Source: Candidatus Bathyarchaeota archaeon
GTDB lineage: Archaea; Thermoproteota; Bathyarchaeia; Bathyarchaeales; Bathycorpusculaceae
Direction of reading: 5' to 3'
Length of the DNA: 64,000 nucleotides
Assembly: GCA_963777155.1 (NCBI GenBank)
Contig: CAVZPM010000036.1
Location: forward strand, 32,001-96,000
Shown: piece after piece, positions 7,157 to 19,761 of the stretch
How the letters are laid out: each line of letters opens with the position of its first letter
Numbering within the stretch: the stretch's first letter is position 1
The notes under the pieces: generated by a model
The model's input: only the letters and a program-made list of their open reading frames with translations
What the model was told of the DNA's origin: nothing
Database searches by the model: none
Program-made: the position numbers and the translations under genes

Positions 7157-9982
7157 CTAAGCCGGTGTGGCTTCTCGTGGTTCCCGAACGACTTTTTTGC
7201 CTTGAGAAACCGAGATGTCCTGCAACTGTTTTTCCTGTTTTGTTTGTGGTGGTTCAGGGAGCTTTTGTTGTATGCAGCGAAAGTCAATGTCTTCTTCTTT
7301 CAGGTTGAGTTCGGCTTTGACGGTGCCATCATTTAAGTATTCAATCTTGAAGCCCATCTTCTTTGACAAGCTTAAGGCACGGTAGTTGTCCTGCAGGATG
7401 ATCGAGTGGACGCTTTCCATGCCCCTTTCCTTTGCGATGTCAAGCACATAATCGACCATTTTTGTGCCTAACCCTAAGCCTTGCCAATAATCGCTAACAA
7501 GGAAAGCGATTTCACCGCTTTTCTCATCAGATTCGATGCTTAAACGGGTTACGCCAAGGATTCTTCTTTTACCGTTTTCAACGATTTCGGCGACTATAGC
7601 AATTTCACGATCATAGTCAATGTTGCAATAGCGGACTCGGACTTCATGTGGTGTATCTTTCAACATCTGGAAGAAACGATACCGTATAGATTCTTCTGAG
7701 AGGCTTTGGAACATTTCAAGCCATAGTGGTTCATCTTCAGGTTTTATGGGGCGAAGTAATACTTCTTGTCCATTTTTGAGCAGCCAGAGTATTTCGTATT
7801 TTTTGGGGTATGGACTTATGACCATGTGTTCATGGGGTTCAAATTTCTTGCAGACGTTGTCTTTGTTGATAACTATGCGGGCGTCAAGGATTGTTGCGTC
7901 TTTCTCGCTGACAAGTAGGGGGTTTATGTCTATTTCTTTTATCTGTGGGAAATCAACTAGCAGTTGTGAGAACATCAGTACGGTTTCGTCAAGTTTTTTA
8001 AGGTCTACTGGCGGTGCGTTTCTCCAGCCTTTGAGTAGACGATAGACTTTGGTTTCTTCCATAATTCGGTGTATTAAGGTTGTGTTTAACGGGGGCAGAC
8101 CAATCGAGGTGTCTTTGAAGAGCTCCACGCCTACACCACCGCTACCGAAGAGGATAACGGGACCAAACACGGGGTCGGTTTTTCCGCCGATGATTAGTTC
8201 ATAGCCCTTCTTCTCAATCATAGGTTGAACGGTGACGCCGATTATTTGGGCATTCGGGTTGTAGGCTGTTGCTCTCTGGATCAATAGTTCGAAGGCGCTT
8301 CGGACTTCGTCCGGGGAGTTAACGTTTAGGATTACTCCGCCTGCATCGCTTTTATGAACGATCTGCGGTGACAGAATCTTGAGCACCACTGGGAAACCCA
8401 TTTCCTGCGCGAATGCCACCGCCTCGTCAACGTTGTTTGCGACTGAGGTTTTTACGACTGGGAAATTGTAGTATTTAAGTATCTTTTTAGCTTCGTCTTC
8501 GGTAAGGATTTCGCGATCTTCAAACGCAGCGTTTCGCAGGATTGCCATTATTGGGCGTTTAGGTGGGGCAGCATCAACGGGCAATTCTTCTGGGGTTTCG
8601 TATAGAAGATCTATGTTACGTTGGTAATCGTACATGTACATGTATGTTCTAACGGCTTGTTCGGGTGTTGAGTACGTGGGGATATTGTTGGCGTTTAGGA
8701 TGCTGTTTGCCTCCTGAACGGCACCATAACCCATAAACGAGGTGAGGATTGTCTTGTTCTGGAAGGTCTTATTGCGAACAAGTTCAACAATATTTTTTGA
8801 GATTTCAACTGATTCTGAAACAGCCTGTTGAGTGAAAACAATCAAAATACCATCAATGTTTTCATCATTTAAGCAGGCTTCAACCGCTGCTTTGTACCTT
8901 TCAGACTTGGCATCTCCAAGGACATCGATGGGGTTGCCGTGGCTCCAAAACGGAGGTAGAACAGCGTTAAGAGAATCCATCGTTTTCTGGCTTAGCTTAG
9001 CCAATTTGCCGCCCTGAGCAATCAATGCGTCAGTCGCCATGACGCCGGGTCCACCAGCGTTGGTGATTATGGCTAATCTTGGTCCCTTTGGTAACGGTTG
9101 GGTTCCTAGAACCTCCGCTGCATTAAACAAGTCAGCTATCTCGTTGACACGGACAATACCCGCGCGTTTGAATGCCGCATCGTAGATTCCATCTTCGCCA
9201 GATAGTGAACCCGTGTGAGAAGCCGCGGCTTTGGCACTCTCAGAAAACTTGCCCGACTTTACAACGATTATGGGTTTTGTTCTTGCGAAGTGTCTTGCAG
9301 CACTCATAAATTTGCGGGCTTCAGTTATGCCCTCCACATACATTAGGATACTTTTGGTTTTGGGGTCTGATCCAAAATAATCGATCAAGTCGCCAAAATC
9401 TACATCAATCATGGAGCCTACAGAGACAAAGTTGCTGAATCCAATATTTTCATGTAGAGCCCAGTCAAGGATTGCAGAACCCAAAGCGCCACTCTGTGAC
9501 AGAAAAGCTACGTTGCCGGCTTTGGGCATTTTATCTAGGAAGGTAGCATTCAAATTGTTTCGGGGACGAATTATTCCGATGCAGTTGGGACCAATTATTC
9601 GGATGCCGTATTTCTTGGCGATTTCTAGAGTTTTTTCTTCAAGCGCTTTGCCCGCTGGCCCAGTTTCTTTGAAGCCAGCTGAAACTATTATTGCTCCTTT
9701 GACTTTTCCTTTTCCGCATTCCTCCATCACGTCTGGAACGGTTTTGGCTGGAGTAGCGATTATGGCTAAGTCAACAGGCTCAGGAACCTGATCCACTGTC
9801 GGGTAGGTTTTAACTCCTAGAATTTCTGGTTTACGAATGTTAACAAAGTAAACTTTTCCAGTGTAACCCATTTGGGTAAAATTTTTAACTATGGCGTAAC
9901 CGACAGACCCTTCAACGTCGCTGGCTCCAATGATGGCTACATTTTGAGGATTGAAGATCTTGTCAAGGTTTGTGGTGACCAT
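7157..9982 (-). CDS. ADP-forming acyl-CoA synthetase (alpha-beta) fused to a C-terminal GNAT (Pat/YfiQ-like)
   Basis: CoA-binding IIGAS, GPNCIG, SQSG, ASHTGS, NAGGPG, NPIDV; ATP-grasp HKSDAGGV, DPVFGP, EIDINP; GNAT WQGLGLGT. Confidence 0.93.
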   Translation of the reverse strand: MVTTNLDKIFNPQNVAIIGASDVEGSVGYAIVKNFTQMGYTGKVYFVNIRKPEILGVKTYPTVDQVPEPVDLAIIATPAKTVPDVMEECGKGKVKGAIIVSAGFKETGPAGKALEEKTLEIAKKYGIRIIGPNCIGIIRPRNNLNATFLDKMPKAGNVAFLSQSGALGSAILDWALHENIGFSNFVSVGSMIDVDFGDLIDYFGSDPKTKSILMYVEGITEARKFMSAARHFARTKPIIVVKSGKFSESAKAAASHTGSLSGEDGIYDAAFKRAGIVRVNEIADLFNAAEVLGTQPLPKGPRLAIITNAGGPGVMATDALIAQGGKLAKLSQKTMDSLNAVLPPFWSHGNPIDVLGDAKSERYKAAVEACLNDENIDGILIVFTQQAVSESVEISKNIVELVRNKTFQNKTILTSFMGYGAVQEANSILNANNIPTYSTPEQAVRTYMYMYDYQRNIDLLYETPEELPVDAAPPKRPIMAILRNAAFEDREILTEDEAKKILKYYNFPVVKTSVANNVDEAVAFAQEMGFPVVLKILSPQIVHKSDAGGVILNVNSPDEVRSAFELLIQRATAYNPNAQIIGVTVQPMIEKKGYELIIGGKTDPVFGPVILFGSGGVGVELFKDTSIGLPPLNTTLIHRIMEETKVYRLLKGWRNAPPVDLKKLDETVLMFSQLLVDFPQIKEIDINPLLVSEKDATILDARIVINKDNVCKKFEPHEHMVISPYPKKYEILWLLKNGQEVLLRPIKPEDEPLWLEMFQSLSEESIRYRFFQMLKDTPHEVRVRYCNIDYDREIAIVAEIVENGKRRILGVTRLSIESDEKSGEIAFLVSDYWQGLGLGTKMVDYVLDIAKERGMESVHSIILQDNYRALSLSKKMGFKIEYLNDGTVKAELNLKEEDIDFRCIQQKLPEPPQTKQEKQLQDISVSQGKKVVREPREATPA

Positions 9983-10120: not shown

Positions 10121-10567
10121 TCACTGGAAATACTTTTTGATTTCATCCAATGATAGAACAGCAACGCCTGCCGCAGTCAACATTTGCTCTGCCCGTTCAA
10201 CATTACTTGGCCGCAGAATCAACGCAACTTTCCCATCTAAATGAACCGCTGAAGAATATGCATACTCAATGTTTATGCCGCCGTCGCCTAAAATTTTCGT
10301 AATTTTTGAGAGCGTGTTTTGTTCTGAGATGAAAGTGGCGGTTACTTCCGTGTTCTTCTTTGATTTGGCAAGATTGAACTCTGCGTCCTCCAAAAGCTTA
10401 GAAGCTTTCTGTGGTTCCTCAGTTATCAAACGAACCAAGCCGAATTCGCCTGCATCAGCAATAGACAATGCGAAGACCTTGATTTTGTTTTTGTCAAGCT
10501 GTGACATCGTATCGAATAGTGACCCCGGATGGTTATCAAGGAAAACGCTTACTTGCGGTATAGGCAA
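10121..10567 (-). CDS. Tandem ACT-domain protein (type that accompanies paaK/ior)
   Basis: QVSVFLDNHPGSL...ALSIADAGEFGLVRLI...INIEYAY. Confidence 0.92.
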   Translation of the reverse strand: MPIPQVSVFLDNHPGSLFDTMSQLDKNKIKVFALSIADAGEFGLVRLITEEPQKASKLLEDAEFNLAKSKKNTEVTATFISEQNTLSKITKILGDGGINIEYAYSSAVHLDGKVALILRPSNVERAEQMLTAAGVAVLSLDEIKKYFQ

Positions 10568-10684: not shown

Positions 10685-11422
10685 TTGCTAAAATGCACCG
10701 AGGTGTCCAAGCGTTTTGGAGGACTTCAAGCATTAGGAAACGTCGACTTCATGGTCAACGATGGTGAGATAGCAGGGCTTGTTGGACCCAACGGCTCAGG
10801 TAAATCAACTCTCCTTAACCTCATTAGCGGCGTTTACAAACCCGACTCAGGAAGAATCATATTTCTAGACCAGGATATCACGAAACTCCCGCCATATAAG
10901 ATCTGTGCATTAGGCATAACCAAAACAGCTCAAACCGTTCAGTCTTTCCCTGAAATGACCGCTGCCGAAAATGTTCTGACAAGCGTGCTGTTTAATGAGA
11001 AAAAGTATAGCGGCAAAACCAACGCACTTCTACGGGCTCAGGAACTTTTGGGGTTTGTAGGACTAAGCAAAGAAAAGTTTGATTTGCCAGCAAAAAAGCT
11101 TAACGTTGTTGAGTTGCGGCGTATCCAGCTTGCCAAAGCCCTAGCAACCAACCCGAAGTTGTTGCTGTTGGACGAGTTGCTAACTGGGTTGACGCCCAAA
11201 GAATCAGATGAAGCAATAGAACTTATCAAAACAATCAACAAACAGGGCGTAACAATATTAATCGTCGAGCATGTCATGAGGGTCATTATGGGTTTGTGCA
11301 GTCGCGTAATAGTATTAAATCACGGCGAAAAAATCTGCGAAGGTGACCCCAAAACGGTGGTTTGCAACGAGAATGTTGTGAAAGTTTACTTGGGTAAACG
11401 TTTCACTTTTGGAGAGGAGTAA
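10685..11422 (+). CDS. livG: HAAT-family ABC transporter ATPase (LivG-like)
   Basis: GPNGSGKST, LLLLDE, IVEH, VVKVYLG. Confidence 0.92.
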   Translation: MLKCTEVSKRFGGLQALGNVDFMVNDGEIAGLVGPNGSGKSTLLNLISGVYKPDSGRIIFLDQDITKLPPYKICALGITKTAQTVQSFPEMTAAENVLTSVLFNEKKYSGKTNALLRAQELLGFVGLSKEKFDLPAKKLNVVELRRIQLAKALATNPKLLLLDELLTGLTPKESDEAIELIKTINKQGVTILIVEHVMRVIMGLCSRVIVLNHGEKICEGDPKTVVCNENVVKVYLGKRFTFGEE

Positions 11423-11425
11423 TAG

Positions 11426-12130
11426 ATGCTTGAAATCGCGAATTTGTCCGCAGCTTATGGCATGGTTCAGATACTCTACAATGTAGATTTCAAGGTGGAA
11501 AAAGGTGAAATTGTGAGCATCATCGGACCAAACGGAGCAGGAAAAACCACTTTGGCAAAAACAATCATGGGCTTTATGCATCCAAAAACTGGCTCAATTA
11601 AGTTTAAGGGTGAAAATATCGAGAAATTGCCCACTTACGAGATAGTCAAGAAAGGCTTGACGATGATTCCTGAAGGCAGGGAAATCTTTCCCCGAATGAC
11701 CGTCGATGAAAACCTTCAACTCGGCGCCTACAACATTGCCGACAAAGCAAAGATAAAGGAAACCAAAGAGAAAGCCTTCGATATTTTTCCAGTCTTAAAA
11801 AAGAAAGAGAAAGTGTTGGCTCAAACTCTAAGCGGTGGAGAGCAGCAAATGCTGGTTATTTGCAGAAGCCTAATGTCTAACCCTCAATTGCTAATCCTCG
11901 ATGAACCTTCGCTGGGATTGGCGCCAATTATCGTGGAGAAAGTTCTCGATACTGTGCGTACAATTAACGAGGAAGGAGTAACGGTGCTCTTGGTAGAGCA
12001 GAACATTCATGATAGCCTAACCGTAGCTGACAGAGGCTACGTTTTGGAGGAGGGCAAGATAATCTTAGAAGGGAAGAGTAGGGAACTTTTATCTAATAGT
12101 CACATAAAAGAAGTGTATCTAGGCCTTTAA
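11426..12130 (+). CDS. livF: HAAT-family ABC transporter ATPase (LivF-like)
   Basis: GPNGAGKTT, PEGREIF, LSGGEQQML, DEPSLGLAP, VEQN. Confidence 0.95.
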   Translation: MLEIANLSAAYGMVQILYNVDFKVEKGEIVSIIGPNGAGKTTLAKTIMGFMHPKTGSIKFKGENIEKLPTYEIVKKGLTMIPEGREIFPRMTVDENLQLGAYNIADKAKIKETKEKAFDIFPVLKKKEKVLAQTLSGGEQQMLVICRSLMSNPQLLILDEPSLGLAPIIVEKVLDTVRTINEEGVTVLLVEQNIHDSLTVADRGYVLEEGKIILEGKSRELLSNSHIKEVYLGL

Positions 12131-12149: not shown

Positions 12150-13469
12150 TTGGCAGACGGCAAATACTGGAACGAAAAAATAGAAACCATGCCCACACAG
12201 GAAATAAAGAAGCTCCAACTCCAAAAACTCAAGCAACAAGTCAAACACTGCTATGAACACAGCAGCTTTTACAAGAAAAAATTTGACAGCGTCGGCCTTA
12301 AACCCCTCGACATAAAGGCTCTAGACGACTTGCAAAAGATTCCCTTCACCATAAAGAGCGATTTACGTGACAATTATCCCTTCGGTATGGTTGCCGCTAA
12401 ATCAGATGAGATTGTTGAGATTCATGCATCAAGTGGAACCACAGGAAACCCAATAATCGGAGCCTACACCCAGAGCGACATGGACATGTGGCAGGAACTC
12501 ATGGCCCGCAGTATCTACACCACGGGCGGAAGACGCCAAGACGTCATCCACATTGCCTACGGCTATGGCTTGTTCACTGGCGGTTTAGGTTTTCATTACG
12601 GCGCTCAGAAAGTTGGCGCAAAAATCGTTCCGGCAAGCGGCGGAATGACCCAGCGGCAAATTAAACTTATGAAAGACTTAGACGTCACCATTTTAGCCTG
12701 TACACCCAGTTTCGCCGTTTACCTTGCCGAGACGATGGCTCAAGAAGGCGTTGTTCCGCAAAAGGACCTTAAACTTAGATTGGGCATGTTCGGAGCTGAA
12801 CCATGGTCGCACAAAATACGTGAAAGAATCGAAAAGGAAATGGGCATAGAAGCTTTTGACGTTTACGGCTTAACCGAGCTTTGCGGTCCAGGAGTCTCCA
12901 TAGAATGCTCCGAGCATAATGGCCTGCACATTTGGGAAGACCACTTTATTGTAGAAACAATTGACCCTGACACGGGCGAAGTGTTGCCTCAAGGAGAAGA
13001 GGGCGAACTGGTTTTTACAGCGCTTAGCAAAACAGGTTTGCCAATGCTACGCTATAGGACAAGAGACATCTCAAAAATCAATGCAGAAAAATGTGCATGT
13101 GGAAGAACACATGCCAGAATGGACAGGATAACAGGAAGATCAGACGACATGCTAATCATCCGAGGAGTAAATGTGTTCCCATCGCAAATAGAATACGCCG
13201 TTATGTGCTTCGCTGAACTCGCAACTCAATACCTAATCGTCCTTGATAGGCCAGGCGCATTAGACACTTTCGTGGTTAAGGTTGAGTTGTCTGAGAAGGC
13301 CTCCAAAGATGCGACCCTCGATAAAGCTGTCTTGATAAATGAAATCCAAAAGAGAATCCACATAGTGACAGGCATATCTGCTGATGTCCAGATCGTTAAG
13401 CCAGGTGAGCTTCCAAGGACAGAGGGCAAAGCAAAAAGGGTATTGGACTTGCGTAAAGGCAAAATGTAA
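12150..13469 (+). CDS. paaK: Phenylacetate-CoA ligase family (AMP-forming)
   Basis: HASSGTTG, YGYGLFTGGLG, GAEPW, YGLTE, RYRTRD, GRSDDMLIIRGVNVFPSQIE, PRTEGKAKR. Confidence 0.95.
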   Translation: MADGKYWNEKIETMPTQEIKKLQLQKLKQQVKHCYEHSSFYKKKFDSVGLKPLDIKALDDLQKIPFTIKSDLRDNYPFGMVAAKSDEIVEIHASSGTTGNPIIGAYTQSDMDMWQELMARSIYTTGGRRQDVIHIAYGYGLFTGGLGFHYGAQKVGAKIVPASGGMTQRQIKLMKDLDVTILACTPSFAVYLAETMAQEGVVPQKDLKLRLGMFGAEPWSHKIRERIEKEMGIEAFDVYGLTELCGPGVSIECSEHNGLHIWEDHFIVETIDPDTGEVLPQGEEGELVFTALSKTGLPMLRYRTRDISKINAEKCACGRTHARMDRITGRSDDMLIIRGVNVFPSQIEYAVMCFAELATQYLIVLDRPGALDTFVVKVELSEKASKDATLDKAVLINEIQKRIHIVTGISADVQIVKPGELPRTEGKAKRVLDLRKGKM

Positions 13470-13480
13470 AGGACAAACTT

Positions 13481-15670
13481 ATGACTTCCAAGATTGCACA
13501 AGATAAACCGGGCACCTTTGTCTTGCTTAACGGTGATGAAGCAGTTGCACGAGGCGCAGTAGAAGCTACCGTCAAAGTTGCTGCTTCATACCCCGGAACA
13601 CCTGCAACCGAAATCTTGGAAACACTCGCTGAAGTTGCGAAAGATTTTGGAATCTATGCCGAATGGAGCATTAACGAGATAGTAGCTGCGGAAGTTGCGG
13701 CGGGCGCATCAATGACTGGAGTGCGTTCGATTGTATCTATGAAACATGTAGGGCTTAATGTCGCTGCAGACGCCGCCATGACTTTAGCCTACACTGGAGT
13801 TGAAGGAGGCATGGTAATCGCTGTCTGCGACGACCCAGCACTACATAGTAGCCAAAACGAACAGGACACCCGCTTCTTTGCAGTTCATTCCAAGTTGCCA
13901 CTACTAGACGCTGGTAATCCTCAAGAAGCCCACGACATGGCAAAAGAAGCTTTCGAAATCAGCGAAAAACTCCACCTTCCTATAATTTTGCGCCTGACCA
14001 CTAGAGTCGCCCACGGAAAATCAAGGGTAAAACTTGGGACTTTCCAGAAACTTAACCGTCGAGCCAACTTTGGGAAAGACAGCTCAAAATGGGTAATGGT
14101 TCCTTCCAACGCAATACGACAGCATCGTGTTTTGGAAGGCAGGCTAGCGGAGGCAAAGGGGCTAGCTGAAAACTCAAGGTTCAACACCATAGAAGATAAC
14201 GGAAGCGAAATAGGCATCGTTGGAAGCGGAGTCGGCTATTATTATGCAAGATCAATTCTCGATTCAGCCAAGTTTTCTTGGCTAAAGCTGGGTTTCGTTC
14301 ATCCTTTCCCAGCGGAAATCGTTAGGGTATTTGCTTCTAAAGTTAAAAAAATAATAGTTATCGAAGAATTAAGACCCTATATAGAGGAGAACATTCAGAG
14401 GTTAGGTTTTCAAGTAATTGGCAAAAAAATGTTAGGGCTCGAAGAAATCGGCGAATTCACACCTGATAACATCCGATTAGCCTTTGCAAAGTTGGAATTG
14501 GCAGCTCAAGCGGAAAAACAGGAAGCCATAGATTTACCTCCACGTCCACCAGCGCTTTGCCCCGGATGCCCTCATAGAGCATTTTACTACGCCCTAAACA
14601 TGACCAACCAATACGTGAACTGTGACAACGAGAAATGTGTTGGCTGCGACATCTGCGAATATGCATGCTCTTTTGAGAAGGAAAAAATCTTCAATCCACT
14701 CAAGTCGCGGATTCGCTCAATAAGAATTAACCAAACTTTCAATACAGCTGTCACCTGCAAAGCCTGCTTGAACGCTCCATGCATCAATGCATGCCCCGAA
14801 AATGCTATAAGCCAAACAGAAAAAGGAACGATCGTTATAGATGAACAAAAATGCAAAGGCTGCGACTGGTGCATAGATGCTTGTCAATACGGAGCGTTAA
14901 CACTCCACCCCAGCAGCCACAAAGCAATTGTCTGCGACCTATGCGGGGGCGAACCAAAATGCATTCCTGCCTGCCCAGAGAGCGCATTAAGTTTGACGGG
15001 AAAATCCAGCGACAAAATCGTAACAGGCGACATCGGTTGCTACACTCTCGGTGTTTTACCTCCTGTCGGTGCAGTCCAAACTTGCCTTTGCATGGGAGCA
15101 GGAATTTCTCAAGCAGCTGGAATGATTCATGCAGGAGTTAAAGAAAAAGTGTTCGCAGTCATCGGTGACTCAACTTTTTTCCATGCAGGAATGCCGGGAC
15201 TACTAAACATAGTGTATAACAAAGCAAATGTCTGCGTTATCGTAATGGATAATAGCGTAGTTGCTATGACTGGTCATCAACCAACACCTGGCTCAGGAAA
15301 AACTGCCATGGGATTCGATGCAAAAATCATCGATATAAAAGACATCGCAAAAGCTGTCGGAATCGAAAAAGTAACCAGAGTTGATCCTTATGATCTTAAA
15401 GCTACAAGCACCGCCATACATGAAGCAATCAACTACCAAGGCCCATCAGTAATCATTTCCCAGCGAGCATGCCCACTCTTAGTTGAGAAAGGCAAACAAA
15501 GGGAAATCAAAGAAGAATGCAACGCCTGCGGCGTTTGCGTAAAAGCGTTCGGTTGCCCAGCCATAAGCTTAGTAAACGAACGGGCTGAAATCGACCCAAC
15601 CCTCTGCAACGGCTGCGGAGTCTGCGAAACCGTCTGCCCCTTCGACGCGATAAGGAGAAAAGAGATATGA
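13481..15670 (+). CDS. iorA: Indolepyruvate:ferredoxin oxidoreductase alpha subunit with an inserted 4x[4Fe-4S] domain
   Basis: YPGTP, MKHVGLNVA, SSQNEQD, LCPGCPHR, GDIGC, IGDSTFFH, MTGHQP, C-terminal 2x[4Fe-4S]; extra domain at 14600-15016. Confidence 0.95.
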   Translation: MTSKIAQDKPGTFVLLNGDEAVARGAVEATVKVAASYPGTPATEILETLAEVAKDFGIYAEWSINEIVAAEVAAGASMTGVRSIVSMKHVGLNVAADAAMTLAYTGVEGGMVIAVCDDPALHSSQNEQDTRFFAVHSKLPLLDAGNPQEAHDMAKEAFEISEKLHLPIILRLTTRVAHGKSRVKLGTFQKLNRRANFGKDSSKWVMVPSNAIRQHRVLEGRLAEAKGLAENSRFNTIEDNGSEIGIVGSGVGYYYARSILDSAKFSWLKLGFVHPFPAEIVRVFASKVKKIIVIEELRPYIEENIQRLGFQVIGKKMLGLEEIGEFTPDNIRLAFAKLELAAQAEKQEAIDLPPRPPALCPGCPHRAFYYALNMTNQYVNCDNEKCVGCDICEYACSFEKEKIFNPLKSRIRSIRINQTFNTAVTCKACLNAPCINACPENAISQTEKGTIVIDEQKCKGCDWCIDACQYGALTLHPSSHKAIVCDLCGGEPKCIPACPESALSLTGKSSDKIVTGDIGCYTLGVLPPVGAVQTCLCMGAGISQAAGMIHAGVKEKVFAVIGDSTFFHAGMPGLLNIVYNKANVCVIVMDNSVVAMTGHQPTPGSGKTAMGFDAKIIDIKDIAKAVGIEKVTRVDPYDLKATSTAIHEAINYQGPSVIISQRACPLLVEKGKQREIKEECNACGVCVKAFGCPAISLVNERAEIDPTLCNGCGVCETVCPFDAIRRKEI

Positions 15671-16254
15671 ATCTTGATATAGTTTTTAGTGGCGTGGGTG
15701 GACAAGGAGTCGTAGTTCTTAGTGACATATATTGTGAGGCTGCAATGCTTGAGGGTTTCGATGTTGCAAAAGCTGAGATTCACGGCATGGCTCAGCGTGG
15801 AGGCTCAATAGTTGCATACACAAGAATCGGCACTAAAGTTGAGTCACCCCTAATTGAGACGGGAAAAGCCGATGTCGTCGTTGGTTTTGAGATTTTGGAA
15901 ACAGCAAGAGCGCTGACTATGCTCAAAAAGAATGGCTCAGTGATTGTAAATATGAAGTATATTCCACCTAATTGTGTAGCTTCAGGCGTTAAACCTAAAA
16001 AGATAGAGGAGCTAATGATGCTGCTTCGAGCTAAGGCGCTGGTTCATGAAGTGGATGGCGTTGGCATTGCACAGAAACTGGGTAATATGCTGGTTGTTAA
16101 TACTATCCTCTTAGGTGCGCTTTCGGCGCTTCCAGAGATTCCTGTGAAGGTGGAGTCTTTCCAGAAGGCTATGGCAGGCAGGCTTAAAGAAAAATACATC
16201 AATTTGAACCTTAAAGCCTTTCAGTTAGGCAGGGAAACCGTGATAAAGAGTTAA
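15667..16254 (+). CDS. iorB: Indolepyruvate:ferredoxin oxidoreductase beta subunit
   Basis: GVGGQG, EIHGMAQRGGS, NTILLGAL, NLKAF. Confidence 0.95.
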   Translation: MNLDIVFSGVGGQGVVVLSDIYCEAAMLEGFDVAKAEIHGMAQRGGSIVAYTRIGTKVESPLIETGKADVVVGFEILETARALTMLKKNGSVIVNMKYIPPNCVASGVKPKKIEELMMLLRAKALVHEVDGVGIAQKLGNMLVVNTILLGALSALPEIPVKVESFQKAMAGRLKEKYINLNLKAFQLGRETVIKS

Positions 16255-16307: not shown

Positions 16308-17681
16308 GTGCAAAAGAAAATACTCGCTATATTAGTCGTTGTAATAATTGCTGTTGCAGCAGTAGCAGCCATAGAATTATACCCCAAAGCAGCATCACCT
16401 GACGCAAGAGACATAAAGATTGGACTAGTAGCACCAATATCAGGATCGCCGATTGGGCAAGACATGGAACGAGCCGCTGAACTAGCCGTTAAGGAAATCA
16501 ACGATGCAGGCGGAGTCTATGTTTCAAGCTGGAACACCAAAGTAAACATAACCCTTGTACTCGCTGACACAATTAATGATGCCCCAGCCAACGCAGTAAC
16601 CCCAGTTACCCGCGCAGTAGAAACAGACAACGTCGACATGCTCATAGGCGGATACGGCAGCGCAGGAACACTAGCCAACGAGATAGTAGCCATCGAAAAC
16701 AGAGTGCCATACATCATCTCTGGAGCTTCTAACCAACTCGTAACAAGGAGAGGACCACAAGGTAACTATGGCGGCTTTGGACCAAATGGTGCAAACAGTG
16801 TAAGCGACGCAGAAGGCATGAGCTACATCTTCCATTATTGCACAACAACTTACCACTACAGCAAAACAGTCGTTGACTTCTTCGCATCCGAAATGAAACC
16901 CATGGTTGCAGAGAATCGTAACTTCAGTCTTGCATTGCTCTACCGCAATGACGCTTTCGGAACAGGAGTTGCAGCGGCAACTAAATTCTGGATACAGAAC
17001 GAAAGCCTCCCAATCAATATCGTTGCAGACAGAAGCTATGACCCCACAACCACAAACTACCAAACTGACCTAACAGCGGTCGCCGCAGCACATCCAGATG
17101 CAGTTTTCATCGCTGACAACCCCGATAAAACACCACTCATAATAAAACAAGGATGGGACGACGTTGGCTTAAAGACTGTCTATATAGCAGTTGAAAACAA
17201 CCAAGATGAAGCCTTCTACGACCTTCTGGGAAGCGTAGGTGACGGACAGCTTCTCGAGTCAAAACTTAATCCCTTCATGACACCTTCGTACTCTACAGTT
17301 GTAGAAAACTATGCTAAGGCTTTCGACGTAGCCTATCCACATGTTATGCCGGGAATGATGGGTGCCGATACATATGATGCAGTATACATCGCTAAAGACG
17401 CAATCCAAAGAGCAGGATCAGTTGACAAAGCAGCAGTTCGCACAGCAATCGAGAGCACAAACATCGACCAAATGCTTATCCAAACAAAGACAGGCAAAAT
17501 ACAGTTTAGCACAGGGGTCAACTACCACGAAATCGACCCAGTAACCTTCATTGAGCAACTTAAATGGGATGCATCAACCAGTCATCTGACATCACAAATA
17601 GTTTGGTCACCACCAAGCAGTACCAACCTCAAACAAGCAGACTTCGTCTTACCAACAGGCTACCTATCTGGAGATCACTAG
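16308..17681 (+). CDS. livK: HAAT-family ABC substrate-binding protein, N-terminally anchored
   Basis: IKIGLVAPISG, EINDAGG, GGYGS, YDAVYI; N-terminal TM. Confidence 0.88.
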   Translation: MQKKILAILVVVIIAVAAVAAIELYPKAASPDARDIKIGLVAPISGSPIGQDMERAAELAVKEINDAGGVYVSSWNTKVNITLVLADTINDAPANAVTPVTRAVETDNVDMLIGGYGSAGTLANEIVAIENRVPYIISGASNQLVTRRGPQGNYGGFGPNGANSVSDAEGMSYIFHYCTTTYHYSKTVVDFFASEMKPMVAENRNFSLALLYRNDAFGTGVAAATKFWIQNESLPINIVADRSYDPTTTNYQTDLTAVAAAHPDAVFIADNPDKTPLIIKQGWDDVGLKTVYIAVENNQDEAFYDLLGSVGDGQLLESKLNPFMTPSYSTVVENYAKAFDVAYPHVMPGMMGADTYDAVYIAKDAIQRAGSVDKAAVRTAIESTNIDQMLIQTKTGKIQFSTGVNYHEIDPVTFIEQLKWDASTSHLTSQIVWSPPSSTNLKQADFVLPTGYLSGDH

Positions 17682-17786
17682 ATAAAAACCAACCTCCCTC
17701 CCTTTTCTTTTATTTCTCGCATGTTTTAAATAGTTAACAAGAGAAGTTATGTCAATCGCCAAAATAAAGAAAGGATGCGATAGACC

Positions 17787-18665
17787 ATGGACTTAACGGC
17801 ACCAACAATACTCCTAACGTTAGTTTGGGGTGTTGCCATCGGTTGTGTATACATTCTTCTGGCAACGGGTCTAAATATAATCTTTGGCGTAATGAAACTC
17901 GTTAATTTTGCCCATGGTCAGTTGCTCATGATAAGTGCGTTCTTAACATGGACAATATCTGTTTCATTGGGGGTAAACGCTTATCTCGCCATAATAATAT
18001 CTATGATTATTGTTGCCCTATTAGGGGTGGTAGTTGAAAGATTCACCTTTCGCAGGGTTCTGGGCACGGACAAACTTAACGAAATATTTGTGAGCTTGGG
18101 TCTAATCTACATTTTTGAAAACGTAGCTATGCTCATTTGGGGAGCCAGTTCAAAGCAAGTGACTAGCCCTTTTTATGGTATGAGCGTTAGTTTACCGGGC
18201 TTCTCAATAACATATGACCGAGTCATAGCTGTGTTCGTAGTGGTCGCTGCACTTGCAACTTTTGGCTTGCTTCTTTGGAAAACGAAAATTGGGTTAGCCA
18301 TGCGAGCAACCAGCCAAAGAAACACAACAGCTACGCTAATGGGGATAAACGTCCAGAAAGTTTACATGTTTACCTTCGCAATTGGAGCCGCGTTAGCAGC
18401 GGTCGCTGGAGGATTGTATGGCGTAATTTACCCCTTTGACTATCAGGTTGGGGCTCTACCTACAATCATTGCTTTCGCCATCATAATAATGGGCGGTTTA
18501 GGAAGCATAAAAGGCGCTATAATCGGCGGCTTACTCTACGGCATAACAGAGCAGATGGCAACCCTGTTTTTGGGAGGTACATGGGGAAGTGCAGTTGCTT
18601 TCACCTTGCTAATTGTTGTACTTATAATTAGACCGAATGGAATATTCGGGGAGAAGGGAGAATAA
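17787..18665 (+). CDS. livH: HAAT-family ABC permease (LivH-like)
   Basis: GLNIIFGVMKLVNFAHG, GLAMRA, IIMGGLGSI, RPNGIFG. Confidence 0.93.
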   Translation: MDLTAPTILLTLVWGVAIGCVYILLATGLNIIFGVMKLVNFAHGQLLMISAFLTWTISVSLGVNAYLAIIISMIIVALLGVVVERFTFRRVLGTDKLNEIFVSLGLIYIFENVAMLIWGASSKQVTSPFYGMSVSLPGFSITYDRVIAVFVVVAALATFGLLLWKTKIGLAMRATSQRNTTATLMGINVQKVYMFTFAIGAALAAVAGGLYGVIYPFDYQVGALPTIIAFAIIIMGGLGSIKGAIIGGLLYGITEQMATLFLGGTWGSAVAFTLLIVVLIIRPNGIFGEKGE

Positions 18666-18666
18666 A

Positions 18667-19761
18667 ATGCAAATCAAACAAACACTAAGCAGGTTCTTGC
18701 ATTCTAGGAGCTTCCTCTTCATCGTTGCCTTCTTTGTCATCATGGCTTTTATTCCATTACTTTTTCGAGATAATTTTTTCCTAACAGTCATGACACTAAT
18801 AACTATCTTTTCAATCTACGCCGCAAGCTGGAATTTCTTGGCAAATTCAGGGCAGGGTTCCCTAGGACACGCTGTATTCTTAGGCGTAGGCGGCTTTGCC
18901 TCAGCAATAATTGGCAGTTCAATATCGAAAGCGACAGTAAATTTTCTTGGCACCACCCAAATGCCGGTGGGCGGTTTATCCGCTACTATCTTAATAGTAG
19001 CGCTTCTGCTAGGCGGACTACTTTCAGCGGGAGTTGGGTTACTGATAGGTTTAGCCTGCATAAGACTGAAGGCATGGTACTTGGCTATGGTAACGTTTGG
19101 TTTTTCAGTGATAGCGGCAACATTGTCAAGTCAATTTGATTCAATCACCCAGGGAATAAACGGATATGCTACGACAACGCTTGTGGCCAAAGGTTACCCA
19201 TTTTACCTTCTGGTTGTTCTCTTCGCTTTGACCTCCATTTCGGTAATGTACTTCATAATGAATTCAAGAATGGGGTTAGCATTCAGAGCAATCCATGGAA
19301 ATGAAACCGAAGCAAAGATGATTGGAGTAAACACCGCAAAATACAAGTTGCTAGCTTTTATCATAAGCACATTCTTCGCCGGGATATCTGGAGGCTTGTA
19401 CGCTTACTTTATCAGACTCATCGACAACTCAATCTTTTCACCAGCAAACTCATTCCTACCGCTAATAATGTCAGTCATCGGAGGCTTAGGAACAGTTCCA
19501 GGACCAATCATCGGATCAATATTCTTGGTCTCAATCCAGCAAATCTCCACATTACCCACTGTTGTTAATTCCCTAAATGGCGCACTTGGGATGTATTTCC
19601 CAAGTGTAAGTAACGTTGGACCACCTTTGAGCCTCCTAGCCATAGGCGTAATACTTATAGTCATCGTGATCTTCGCTCCAAAAGGCTTGATATCACTGCT
19701 CCGCAAAATCTACAAATACCTTATGTCCGAACCAAAAAACAAAGAGACAAAACTCAAATGA
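18667..19761 (+). CDS. livM: HAAT-family ABC permease (LivM-like)
   Basis: GQGSLGHAVF, YLAMVT, GLAFRAI, VIGGLGT, PKGL; ATG at 18667. Confidence 0.92.
   Translation: MQIKQTLSRFLHSRSFLFIVAFFVIMAFIPLLFRDNFFLTVMTLITIFSIYAASWNFLANSGQGSLGHAVFLGVGGFASAIIGSSISKATVNFLGTTQMPVGGLSATILIVALLLGGLLSAGVGLLIGLACIRLKAWYLAMVTFGFSVIAATLSSQFDSITQGINGYATTTLVAKGYPFYLLVVLFALTSISVMYFIMNSRMGLAFRAIHGNETEAKMIGVNTAKYKLLAFIISTFFAGISGGLYAYFIRLIDNSIFSPANSFLPLIMSVIGGLGTVPGPIIGSIFLVSIQQISTLPTVVNSLNGALGMYFPSVSNVGPPLSLLAIGVILIVIVIFAPKGLISLLRKIYKYLMSEPKNKETKLK

Follow-up and report, generated by a model that had tools for sequence, protein, structure and literature searches.

Indolepyruvate:ferredoxin oxidoreductase (IOR), an enzyme reportedly first described from Pyrococcus furiosus, is one of the 2-oxoacid:ferredoxin oxidoreductases (OFORs), which are central to anaerobic carbon and amino-acid metabolism and whose domain plan is considered well mapped. 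The CXGC motif ligates the proximal [4Fe-4S] cluster of OFORs, and a docking model of the domain-V-less StOFOR2 of Sulfolobus tokodaii with ferredoxin makes the CXGC loop both the interface and the electron path (PMC5020499, accessible part). In WorS, a small subunit of the bifurcating tungsten aldehyde oxidoreductase (AOR), four clusters 9-10 Å apart carry electrons between the catalytic subunit and a wire (PMC12318220, accessible part). Here we describe an iorA gene in a window of 64,000 nucleotides from a Candidatus Bathyarchaeota archaeon (GCA_963777155.1, contig CAVZPM010000036.1, positions 32,001 to 96,000), which encodes the IOR alpha subunit with a WorS/HycB-type domain of four [4Fe-4S] clusters inserted in the loop that follows its CXGC motif. 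The insertion is real and conserved, and in a large Bathyarchaeia lineage the resulting protein is the usual form of IorA. The acquired domain probably gives this enzyme an extra electron conduit at the conserved CXGC loop, with seven predicted clusters per alpha subunit.

The gene occupies positions 13481..15670 on the forward strand of the window, as does every feature below unless stated otherwise, and forms a 729-aa open reading frame (ORF). On its profile matches, the product is the IorA of an indolepyruvate/arylpyruvate:ferredoxin oxidoreductase: it scores 706.3 bits against TIGR03336 (IOR_alpha; cut-off, 650.9), summed over two stretches, and POR_N (PF01855, domain I; residues 25-187) and TPP_enzyme_C (PF02775; residues 517-658), the latter a thiamine pyrophosphate (TPP) enzyme domain, lie in one chain. 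The TIGR03336 match is split, with residues 15-375 on profile positions 4-374 and profile positions 355-595 following past a gap, and Pfam matches to Fer4_11 and Fer4_7 at residues 423-505 fall inside that gap. In an AlphaFold 2 (AF2) model of the full-length protein, the IorA core has a predicted local distance difference test score (pLDDT) of >90, and the top Foldseek match is a pyruvate:ferredoxin oxidoreductase (PFOR; 7plm_A, E 3.7e-22). This is the single IorA that a profile search found in the window's genome; the database names of insert-bearing proteins are generic.

The residues around the proximal cluster are intact. Cys360 and Cys363 belong to CPGC (14558..14569), the CXGC motif of the proximal [4Fe-4S] cluster, which is invariant in the alignments. 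Cys520, in GDIGC (15026..15040), where the TPP-binding domain VI starts, is the predicted third ligand, and the likewise invariant Cys664 of SQRACPL (15470..15472) is probably the fourth; C360, C363, C520, and C664, together with D517 and G519, were invariant in 100 aligned sequences. The weak alignment of domain VI of an insert-less sister protein (P0121; see below) to 5b46_B spans the first Cys of CXGC to the Cys of SQR(A/S)CPL, which fits these four residues as the proximal-cluster ligands, and weak alignments to both 5b46_B and 1b0p_A stop at the position of Cys664. The C-terminal ferredoxin domain of two [4Fe-4S] clusters (15506..15661; Fer4/Fer4_10 at residues 676-727), the equivalent of domain V, is retained, as had been claimed from the sequence alone. 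Its eight cysteines are present in 113-116 of the 120 database clusters introduced below, the other rows being mostly gaps of truncated entries plus four single-residue substitutions.

Our starting point was a sequence-only reading of this DNA that had flagged nucleotides 14600..15016 (residues 374-512) as an entire ferredoxin inserted in frame beside the TPP domain, about 139 residues long and with four cysteine motifs, at a place where canonical IorA has only a short loop. The sequence agrees: between ...CPGCPHRAFYYALN and IVTGDIGC stand CxxCxxCxxxC, CxxCx4CxxxCP, CxxCxxCxxxC, and CxxCx5CxxxCP, all in frame, and the split TIGR03336 match with its Fer4_11-type block bears out a whole four-cluster domain. 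The count of 16 cysteines given there holds for the motifs; the insert has 17 in total, because C381 must be added. The short loop of other IorAs was also correctly anticipated. A phmmer search of a library of 1.84 billion protein representatives returned 14,622 matches (E ≤ 0.001), and in all of the best 150, aligned with MAFFT, the spacing equivalent to Cys363-Cys520 is 21-35 residues, against 156 in the window protein. The limits of the acquired piece follow from the alignment with P0121 (607 aa), whose loop reads ...ALNSIKQYT... and which shares the flanks QY[TV] and SL.GK...KIVTGD: some 121 residues net (157 versus 36 between the two cysteines) were gained, approximately residues 381-503 (14621..14989). 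The Met of MTNQYV had been taken for the start of a captured gene, and this detail did not survive, since it aligns with a Ser in the insert-less sister; in 61 insert-bearing loci the position is M in 28, T in 21, S in 10, and I and A in 1 each.

The split form is widespread. A word-indexed search with residues 340-540 returned at least 120 clusters from NCBI, ENA, JGI, and Logan, 75-100% identical over the query region; most of the 120 clusters listed are 729-730 aa long, and the Cys363-Cys520 spacing is 156-157 residues in all of them (118 cover both flanks, and 2 are truncated). IorA is present in 120 of 201 genomes sampled from the window's class (E ≤ 1e-30), and 20 of the 201 carry the split in-frame form. 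These 20 belong to two families of one order, namely, family f1 (11 genomes of genus g1, including the window's, 2 of g3, 3 of g6, and 1 of g7) and family f5 (3 genomes of g20); the remaining full-length IorA matches listed among the 201 genomes are uninterrupted. A locus scan with one genome per species returned 71 loci, and 61 have the full insert, five of them with CPGCPYR or CPSCPHR as variants of the first motif. The other 10 comprise a partial locus with the insert end (L097), a frameshifted one (L103), one with an internal deletion (L051), two truncated and uninformative ones (L094 and L101), three insert-less sisters (L034-L036), and two distant bacterial forms (L098 and L104). Insert-bearing records are named Bathyarchaeota or Bathyarchaeia, among them several "Ca. 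Bathycorpusculum" species, a genus that NCBI places in Bathyarchaeales, and Bathy-6 genomes.

Junctions that sequencing data fail to span had been named beforehand as the sign of a chimera, and contigs from three other runs bridge them. In run X13, an 844-nt contig spans 14324-15167 without a gap and crosses both junctions; in run X10, both are bridged by contigs at 14443-14771 and 14835-15051; and in the RNA-library run X23, contigs at 14424-14609 and 14913-15074 match without mismatch. Parts of the stretch had no contig cover in runs X1 and X23. Since an RNA library can contain DNA, the X23 contigs only hint at expression.

Some records related to this distribution deserve mention in their own right. 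Insert-bearing iorA genes occur in bins titled Gemmatimonadales, Nanoarchaeia, and Sulfotelmatobacter (L040, L046, and L047; about 69-74% identical to P0121), and one cluster (P0112) is named Binatia; these are probably misbinned contigs. One genome has two full insert-bearing copies on two contigs (L056 and L057), and another has a frameshifted insert-bearing iorA (L103:544-2728) and, in addition, a truncated locus (L101); such cases may reflect duplication, mixed strains, or pseudogenes. A second IorA-like type was seen in family f18 (G159:C151:3132-4349, G186:C281, G135:C17, G129:C121, G100:C15, and G042:C1) and in G076:C7. It matches TIGR03336 only over profile positions 2-390, below the family cut-off, in ORFs of 659-678 aa, and it apparently has a divergent C-terminal half and not a large insert.

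The insert is a WorS/HycB-type domain of four [4Fe-4S] clusters, nearest to the small subunits of tungsten AORs. Taken alone, the 139-aa stretch matches four-cluster ferredoxin families (the N termini of AegA and PadI, DmsB, and HydN) with E values from 2e-21 to 1e-16, the PadI match covering positions 6-136 of the NCBIfam profile. Among solved structures, phmmer ranked WorS (9mqx_E, E 7.6e-27), the WOR5 small subunit (6x6u_B, 2.8e-26; also 6x1o_B), and AorA (8c0z_C, 9.9e-22) before HycB3 and HycB4; these E values place the motif pattern far beyond chance. An AF2 model of the domain alone, built from 98 aligned sequences, has a pLDDT of 86.5, consists of two intertwined ferredoxin-like halves, and superposes in Foldseek on 9mqx_E and 9mqx_G with a TMq of 0.82-0.83 and a root mean square deviation of 2.4-2.5 Å; the Foldseek alignments to the WorS, AorA, and WOR5 small subunits show 35-39% identity at template modeling (TM) scores of 0.80-0.83. 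Rather than forming a subunit of its own, the insert is an internal domain of IorA. A C-terminal helix of the WorS type is missing, since the chain re-enters IorA (…CPESALSLTGKSSDKIVTGDIGC) right after motif IV; free-standing relatives run on for 20-70 residues past motif IV, and free-standing paralogues have a C-terminal extension aligned where WorS has its helix.

The insert is under strong purifying selection. All 17 of its cysteines are invariant in the 120 clusters listed, and the 16 motif cysteines do not vary in an alignment of 98 sequences that combines inserts with free-standing relatives. For the insert, the ratio of nonsynonymous to synonymous substitution rates (dN/dS) has a median of 0.087 over 60 gene pairs, compared with 0.071 for the N-terminal part, 0.066 for the TPP domain, and 0.105 for the C-terminal ferredoxin domain. 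Mean identity to the window protein is 80.5% for the insert, 85.3% for the N-terminal part, 84.0% for the TPP domain, and 79.4% for the C-terminal ferredoxin domain. The suggestion that the insert is a conserved functional module is supported by its invariant cysteines and its dN/dS. Cys381 (14621-14623) stands five residues ahead of motif I and is conserved without exception in the 62 inserts; the corresponding residue is Val in 29 of 36 free-standing relatives, although a Cys occurs there in a few of the free-standing proteins, P0273 among them.

The simplest history, judged from an IorA tree and from gene order, is a single gain of the insert in place, in the ancestor of one Bathyarchaeia lineage. 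The tree was calculated without the insert columns from 34 of 106 full-length insert-bearing clusters, thinned to <86% identity, and 31 of the first 35 representatives of 560-700 aa. One branch (Shimodaira-Hasegawa-like approximate likelihood ratio test [SH-aLRT], 99) separates the 34 insert-bearing rows from the rest, and the insert-less P0121, 70% identical, is their sister (clade support, 100). Loci of the P0121 type (L034-L036) share the order ACT | livG livF paaK iorA iorB livK livH livM with insert-bearing loci. With an insert-less sister in the same operon and more distant IorAs all lacking the insert, one gain in place is the most parsimonious account; a gain followed by loss in the insert-less sister may be the alternative. 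Sister genera within the family also have insert-less IorAs (L029-L033), which were considered as the state before the gain and rejected: they are 35-46% identical and stand outside this operon, which marks them as a different IorA lineage.

As for the source of the domain, a captured free-standing ferredoxin gene had been proposed from the sequence, and the nearest relatives point the same way, being free-standing ferredoxin genes of the same archaeal class. The closest such proteins in a large database are 55-60% identical, and all but one of those named are from Bathyarchaeota or Bathyarchaeia; four seemingly closer matches are IorA fragments. In the domain tree, the inserts form one clade (support, 96), and the donor is not placed among three free-standing Bathyarchaeia groups. 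The nearest paralogues in the window's genome are 55%, 51%, and 48% identical; those at 55% and 48% directly adjoin AOR-family genes, and the one at 51% is a 205-aa orphan among housekeeping genes. A search for the domain in other long proteins gave insert-bearing IorAs or fragments of them as all of the best 120 matches, so that it says nothing about other fusions. The orphan (G000:C9:113015-113629; L011) and its relatives (P0274-P0344) are four-cluster ferredoxins of about 205 aa with a charged C-terminal extension of about 60 residues, a family widespread in the order. A specific link between this family and the insert was examined and rejected, because the distributions differ.

We propose the following model for the enzyme, in which the insertion, its single origin, its fold family, and the selection on it stand on the evidence above, and the electron-transfer role is a proposal. 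In the ancestor of one Bathyarchaeia lineage, IorA gained a complete WorS/HycB-type domain of four [4Fe-4S] clusters, placed in the loop between the CXGC pair (Cys360 and Cys363) and Cys520 of the TPP domain VI. With the usual C-terminal two-cluster domain kept, the four-cluster insert raises the number of predicted clusters per alpha subunit from three to seven. Because it lies between ligand cysteines, the module is tethered by linkers of approximately 17 and 16 residues to two proximal-cluster ligands. It probably serves as a second conduit for electrons from the TPP site, either as a branch at the proximal cluster or as an extension past the retained C-terminal domain. Low-potential electrons could then pass to or from a partner that replaces or supplements soluble ferredoxin. 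In this respect it would be a covalent counterpart of the separate polyferredoxin subunits of some oxidoreductases; WorS and the PorE of methanococcal PFOR are precedents for modules of this kind as wires.

Several observations weigh against this model. Cluster occupancy of the insert is predicted from its motifs only, and the intact C-terminal ferredoxin domain leaves no obvious need for a further exit. WorS-type subunits polymerize through a C-terminal helix that is missing from the insert, and no candidate partner gene was found linked to an operon that is identical with and without the insert. Structure prediction, recommended by the sequence-only reading as a check, succeeded for the domain alone, which takes the WorS fold, and failed for its placement: in the full-length AF2 model pLDDT is <50 at residues 378-430 and 486-510, no cluster distances are derivable, and with the insert so poorly modeled a branch and a serial extension are not separable. 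The closest free-standing family, the orphan ferredoxin of about 205 aa, has a distribution that does not follow that of the insert. Genus g8, with an insert-less IorA, has the closest full-length form (≥62% identity), and family f2, in which IorA was not matched, has full-length relatives at a greater distance (46-51%); the insert-bearing genus g20 yielded no full-length orphan ferredoxin.

A more specific role is that the module is a docking adaptor for the tungsten AOR or WorS-type "nanowires" of the same organism, or for a hydrogenase, with no soluble ferredoxin involved; we consider this unlikely. It draws on the best sequence and fold relatives being AOR small subunits (9mqx_E, 6x6u_B, and 8c0z_C) and on the two AOR-adjoining paralogues (55% and 48%), as well as on the C-terminal extension, aligned with the WorS helix, that free-standing paralogues retain. 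In WorS, a groove formed by Y40, F42, V48, M50, and F96 receives the C-terminal helix of a neighbor, and this helix mediates polymerization and drives nanowire assembly (PMC12318220, accessible part). The equivalent positions here are I414, I416, T422, V424, and Y470, and they are hydrophobic across 62 inserts. Against docking, the operon contains no AOR, WorS-like, or hydrogenase gene, its order being common to eight of nine insert-bearing loci and the insert-less sister, and the AOR cluster of the window's genome is about 40 kb from iorA. Moreover, a C-terminal helix is absent from the insert itself, and the surface used in WorSL to bind the catalytic subunit may in this protein point toward IorA. 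A complex prediction of the insert (residues 375-512) with the AOR-linked WorS-like protein of this genome gave a score of 0.01 (mark, 0.32), which counts neither for nor against. The idea of docking to an AOR, a carbon monoxide dehydrogenase (CODH), or a hydrogenase, already voiced in the sequence-only reading, remains conjecture; no partner gene has joined the operon, which is identical in the insert-less sister.

A bolder form of this thought, to which we give a similarly small chance, starts from a helix-accepting groove in a domain with no helix of its own, which could cap iron-sulfur protein wires: the embedded WorS-like module might be a plug-in end-piece for strings of the WorS/AOR type or for another polyferredoxin. 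If true, aromatic 2-oxoacid chemistry would have a direct wire to another low-potential enzyme, bypassing free ferredoxin, so that, for example, aldehyde oxidation might drive the reductive carboxylation of imported aryl-acetyl-coenzyme A (CoA) to aromatic amino-acid precursors. In the boldest version, two exits from the proximal cluster would send the two electrons of the TPP intermediate to different acceptors.

The module might also conduct nothing through, acting instead as a structural cap, as an oxygen or redox shield of the proximal cluster, or as an electron store. Lineage-specific extra domains with a protective role do exist in the family, as in domain VII of some PFORs (PMC13768988, accessible part); the canonical exit through the C-terminal two-cluster domain is fully retained, and no partner could be named. 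However, the 16 motif cysteines and C381 are invariant over inserts down to 45% identity, which argues for bound clusters, and every solved relative listed is an iron-sulfur subunit of a redox complex, WorS being an electron-transfer chain. We regard such a role as improbable and prefer a conduit at the CXGC loop.

Finally, an assembly chimera or frame artifact that wrongly joined a ferredoxin gene into iorA is refuted, as nothing was found in its favor, the only oddities being the single records L051 (internal deletion) and L103 (frameshift), and it is contradicted by identical in-frame junctions in all 120 clusters listed, which come from four kinds of source, in 20 class genomes, and 61 species-level loci, by the junction-crossing contigs of three other runs, and by the dN/dS of the insert. 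The L051 record itself (L051:8001-9947), bog-derived and assigned to Bathyarchaeota, encodes an IorA in which only 81 residues, 8 of them Cys, separate the two proximal-cluster cysteines; its motif I joins directly to the stretch that follows motif III (…CVGCDICEYGAVTLHP…). It can be read as an internal deletion of the insert that leaves at most one or two cluster sites or as an assembly error; the liv and paaK genes were not found beside this iorA.

The surrounding genes suggest the chemistry that the enzyme serves. The start of iorB (15667..16254; 195 aa, POR gamma-type domain, PF01558, E 3.9e-38) overlaps the iorA stop. Upstream lie a gene for a PaaK-like aryl-acetate/phenylacetate-CoA ligase (12150..13469; AMP-binding and AMP-binding_C_2) and those for LivG- and LivF-like ABC ATPases (10685..12130; ABC_tran and BCA_ABC_TP_C, supported by synteny), and downstream, with matches to Peripla_BP_6 and BPD_transp_2 and conserved synteny, are genes for a LivK-like binding protein and LivH- and LivM-like permeases (16308..19761). 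Two divergent genes on the reverse strand precede the operon: an ACT-domain gene (10121..10567; Pfam) and one for a 941-aa ADP-forming acyl-CoA synthetase (ACS) fused to GNAT (7157..9982; CoA_binding, Succ_CoA_lig, and ATP-grasp_5, with a C-terminal GNAT). This ACS-GNAT fusion is 81-87% identical in three other genomes (L026, L028, and L064). The livGF-paaK-iorAB-livKHM order is kept in six of seven further loci from four genera plus g20, and in eight of the nine insert-bearing loci, belonging to several genera, that reach past iorB (six of L022-L028, together with L064 and L087). paaK adjoins iorA in all compared loci except L051, the ACT gene stands beside the operon in most loci, and the ACS gene does so in several.

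The combination of importer, PaaK-type ligase, and IorAB, together with the neighboring ADP-forming ACS, fits either the oxidation of aromatic 2-oxoacids or the reductive carboxylation of imported aryl acetates; methanococci use IOR reductively, assimilating aryl acids. The ORFs of the window show no separate ferredoxin gene in the operon, and a Pfam scan of the window found no hydrogenase or formate dehydrogenase gene linked to iorA. The window's genome has four AOR-family genes. Clusters of the form AOR, WorS-like ferredoxin, AOR occur at G000:C36:10-5200, on the same contig upstream of the window, and at G000:C35:71700-75400; the former lies about 40 kb from iorA. In two other genomes, WorS-like genes are 12-15 kb from iorA on the same contig.

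Our literature searches found no description of a four-cluster ferredoxin inside IorA; supplementary gene tables, which might list long IorAs, were outside these searches. In its accessible part, a November 2026 review of OFORs (PMC13768988) sets out a domain plan of I to VII plus PorE, uses the word "insertion" 0 times, and mentions IOR twice without such a form. The accessible part of a paper on termite-gut Bathy-6 merely lists Ior as present, and that of a 2026 classification of tungsten-containing oxidoreductases (WORs) has no mention of IOR or Bathyarchaeia. A search for literature precedent of a ferredoxin-OFOR fusion in PadI of phenylglyoxylate dehydrogenase likewise found no paper. The sequence-only reading had allowed that the insertion might be a common variant already described: it is common, being the form that IorA usually takes in a large Bathyarchaeia lineage, and no paper that describes it was found.

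A four-cluster module in the proximal-cluster loop is thus kept under strong selection in widespread archaea of soil, sediment, peat, wetland, and termite gut. It can be seen as a natural experiment in the recruitment of modular iron-sulfur "wires," for which the insert-less sister enzyme in the same operon is a ready control. Coupling of IOR to another enzyme by the module, if it occurs, would change the electron flow modeled for peptide and aromatic-acid metabolism in Bathyarchaeia.

Comparison with known systems shows which elements are shared and which are new. Like canonical IorA and IorB, the protein has domains I-II, a TPP domain VI with CXGC...C...C, a C-terminal domain of two [4Fe-4S] clusters, an adjacent IorB, and an above-cut-off score; it differs in having 156 instead of 21-35 residues between the second and third proximal cysteines and seven instead of three predicted clusters. 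The WorS, AorA, and WOR5 small subunits (9MQX chains E and G, 8C0Z chain C, and 6X6U chain B) share the four Cys motifs of the insert (E 7.6e-27 to 9.9e-22). They are separate subunits, whereas the insert is embedded in the loop of a TPP enzyme, lacks the nanowire helix, and has the invariant C381. HycB and HycB3-HycB4 of formate hydrogenlyase and hydrogen-dependent CO2 reductase (7Z0S chain B and 7QV7 chains A and B) are of the same fold class (TM 0.72-0.75); these connectors link two catalytic units, are separate subunits, and are more distant from the insert than the AOR subunits.

Among the OFORs themselves, a further polyferredoxin, PorF, is encoded with methanococcal PFOR. PorE, the polyferredoxin of that enzyme, is made from the por cluster as a separate protein and binds loosely (PMC13768988, accessible part). 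Its likeness to the insert is that of a polyferredoxin associated with a 2-oxoacid oxidoreductase, where it presumably feeds or drains low-potential electrons; PorE has a separate gene in its oxidoreductase cluster, in contrast to the operon of the insert, which has no separate ferredoxin gene. In PFOR domain V and in the StOFOR2 docking model, an iron-sulfur module beside the proximal cluster takes electrons from TPP (PMC5020499, accessible part), and the insert is attached at the loop after the CXGC motif, where ferredoxin docks in that model of a two-subunit OFOR. Domain V is a two-cluster, terminal or separate unit, whereas here a module of four predicted clusters has been added on top of a retained domain V equivalent.

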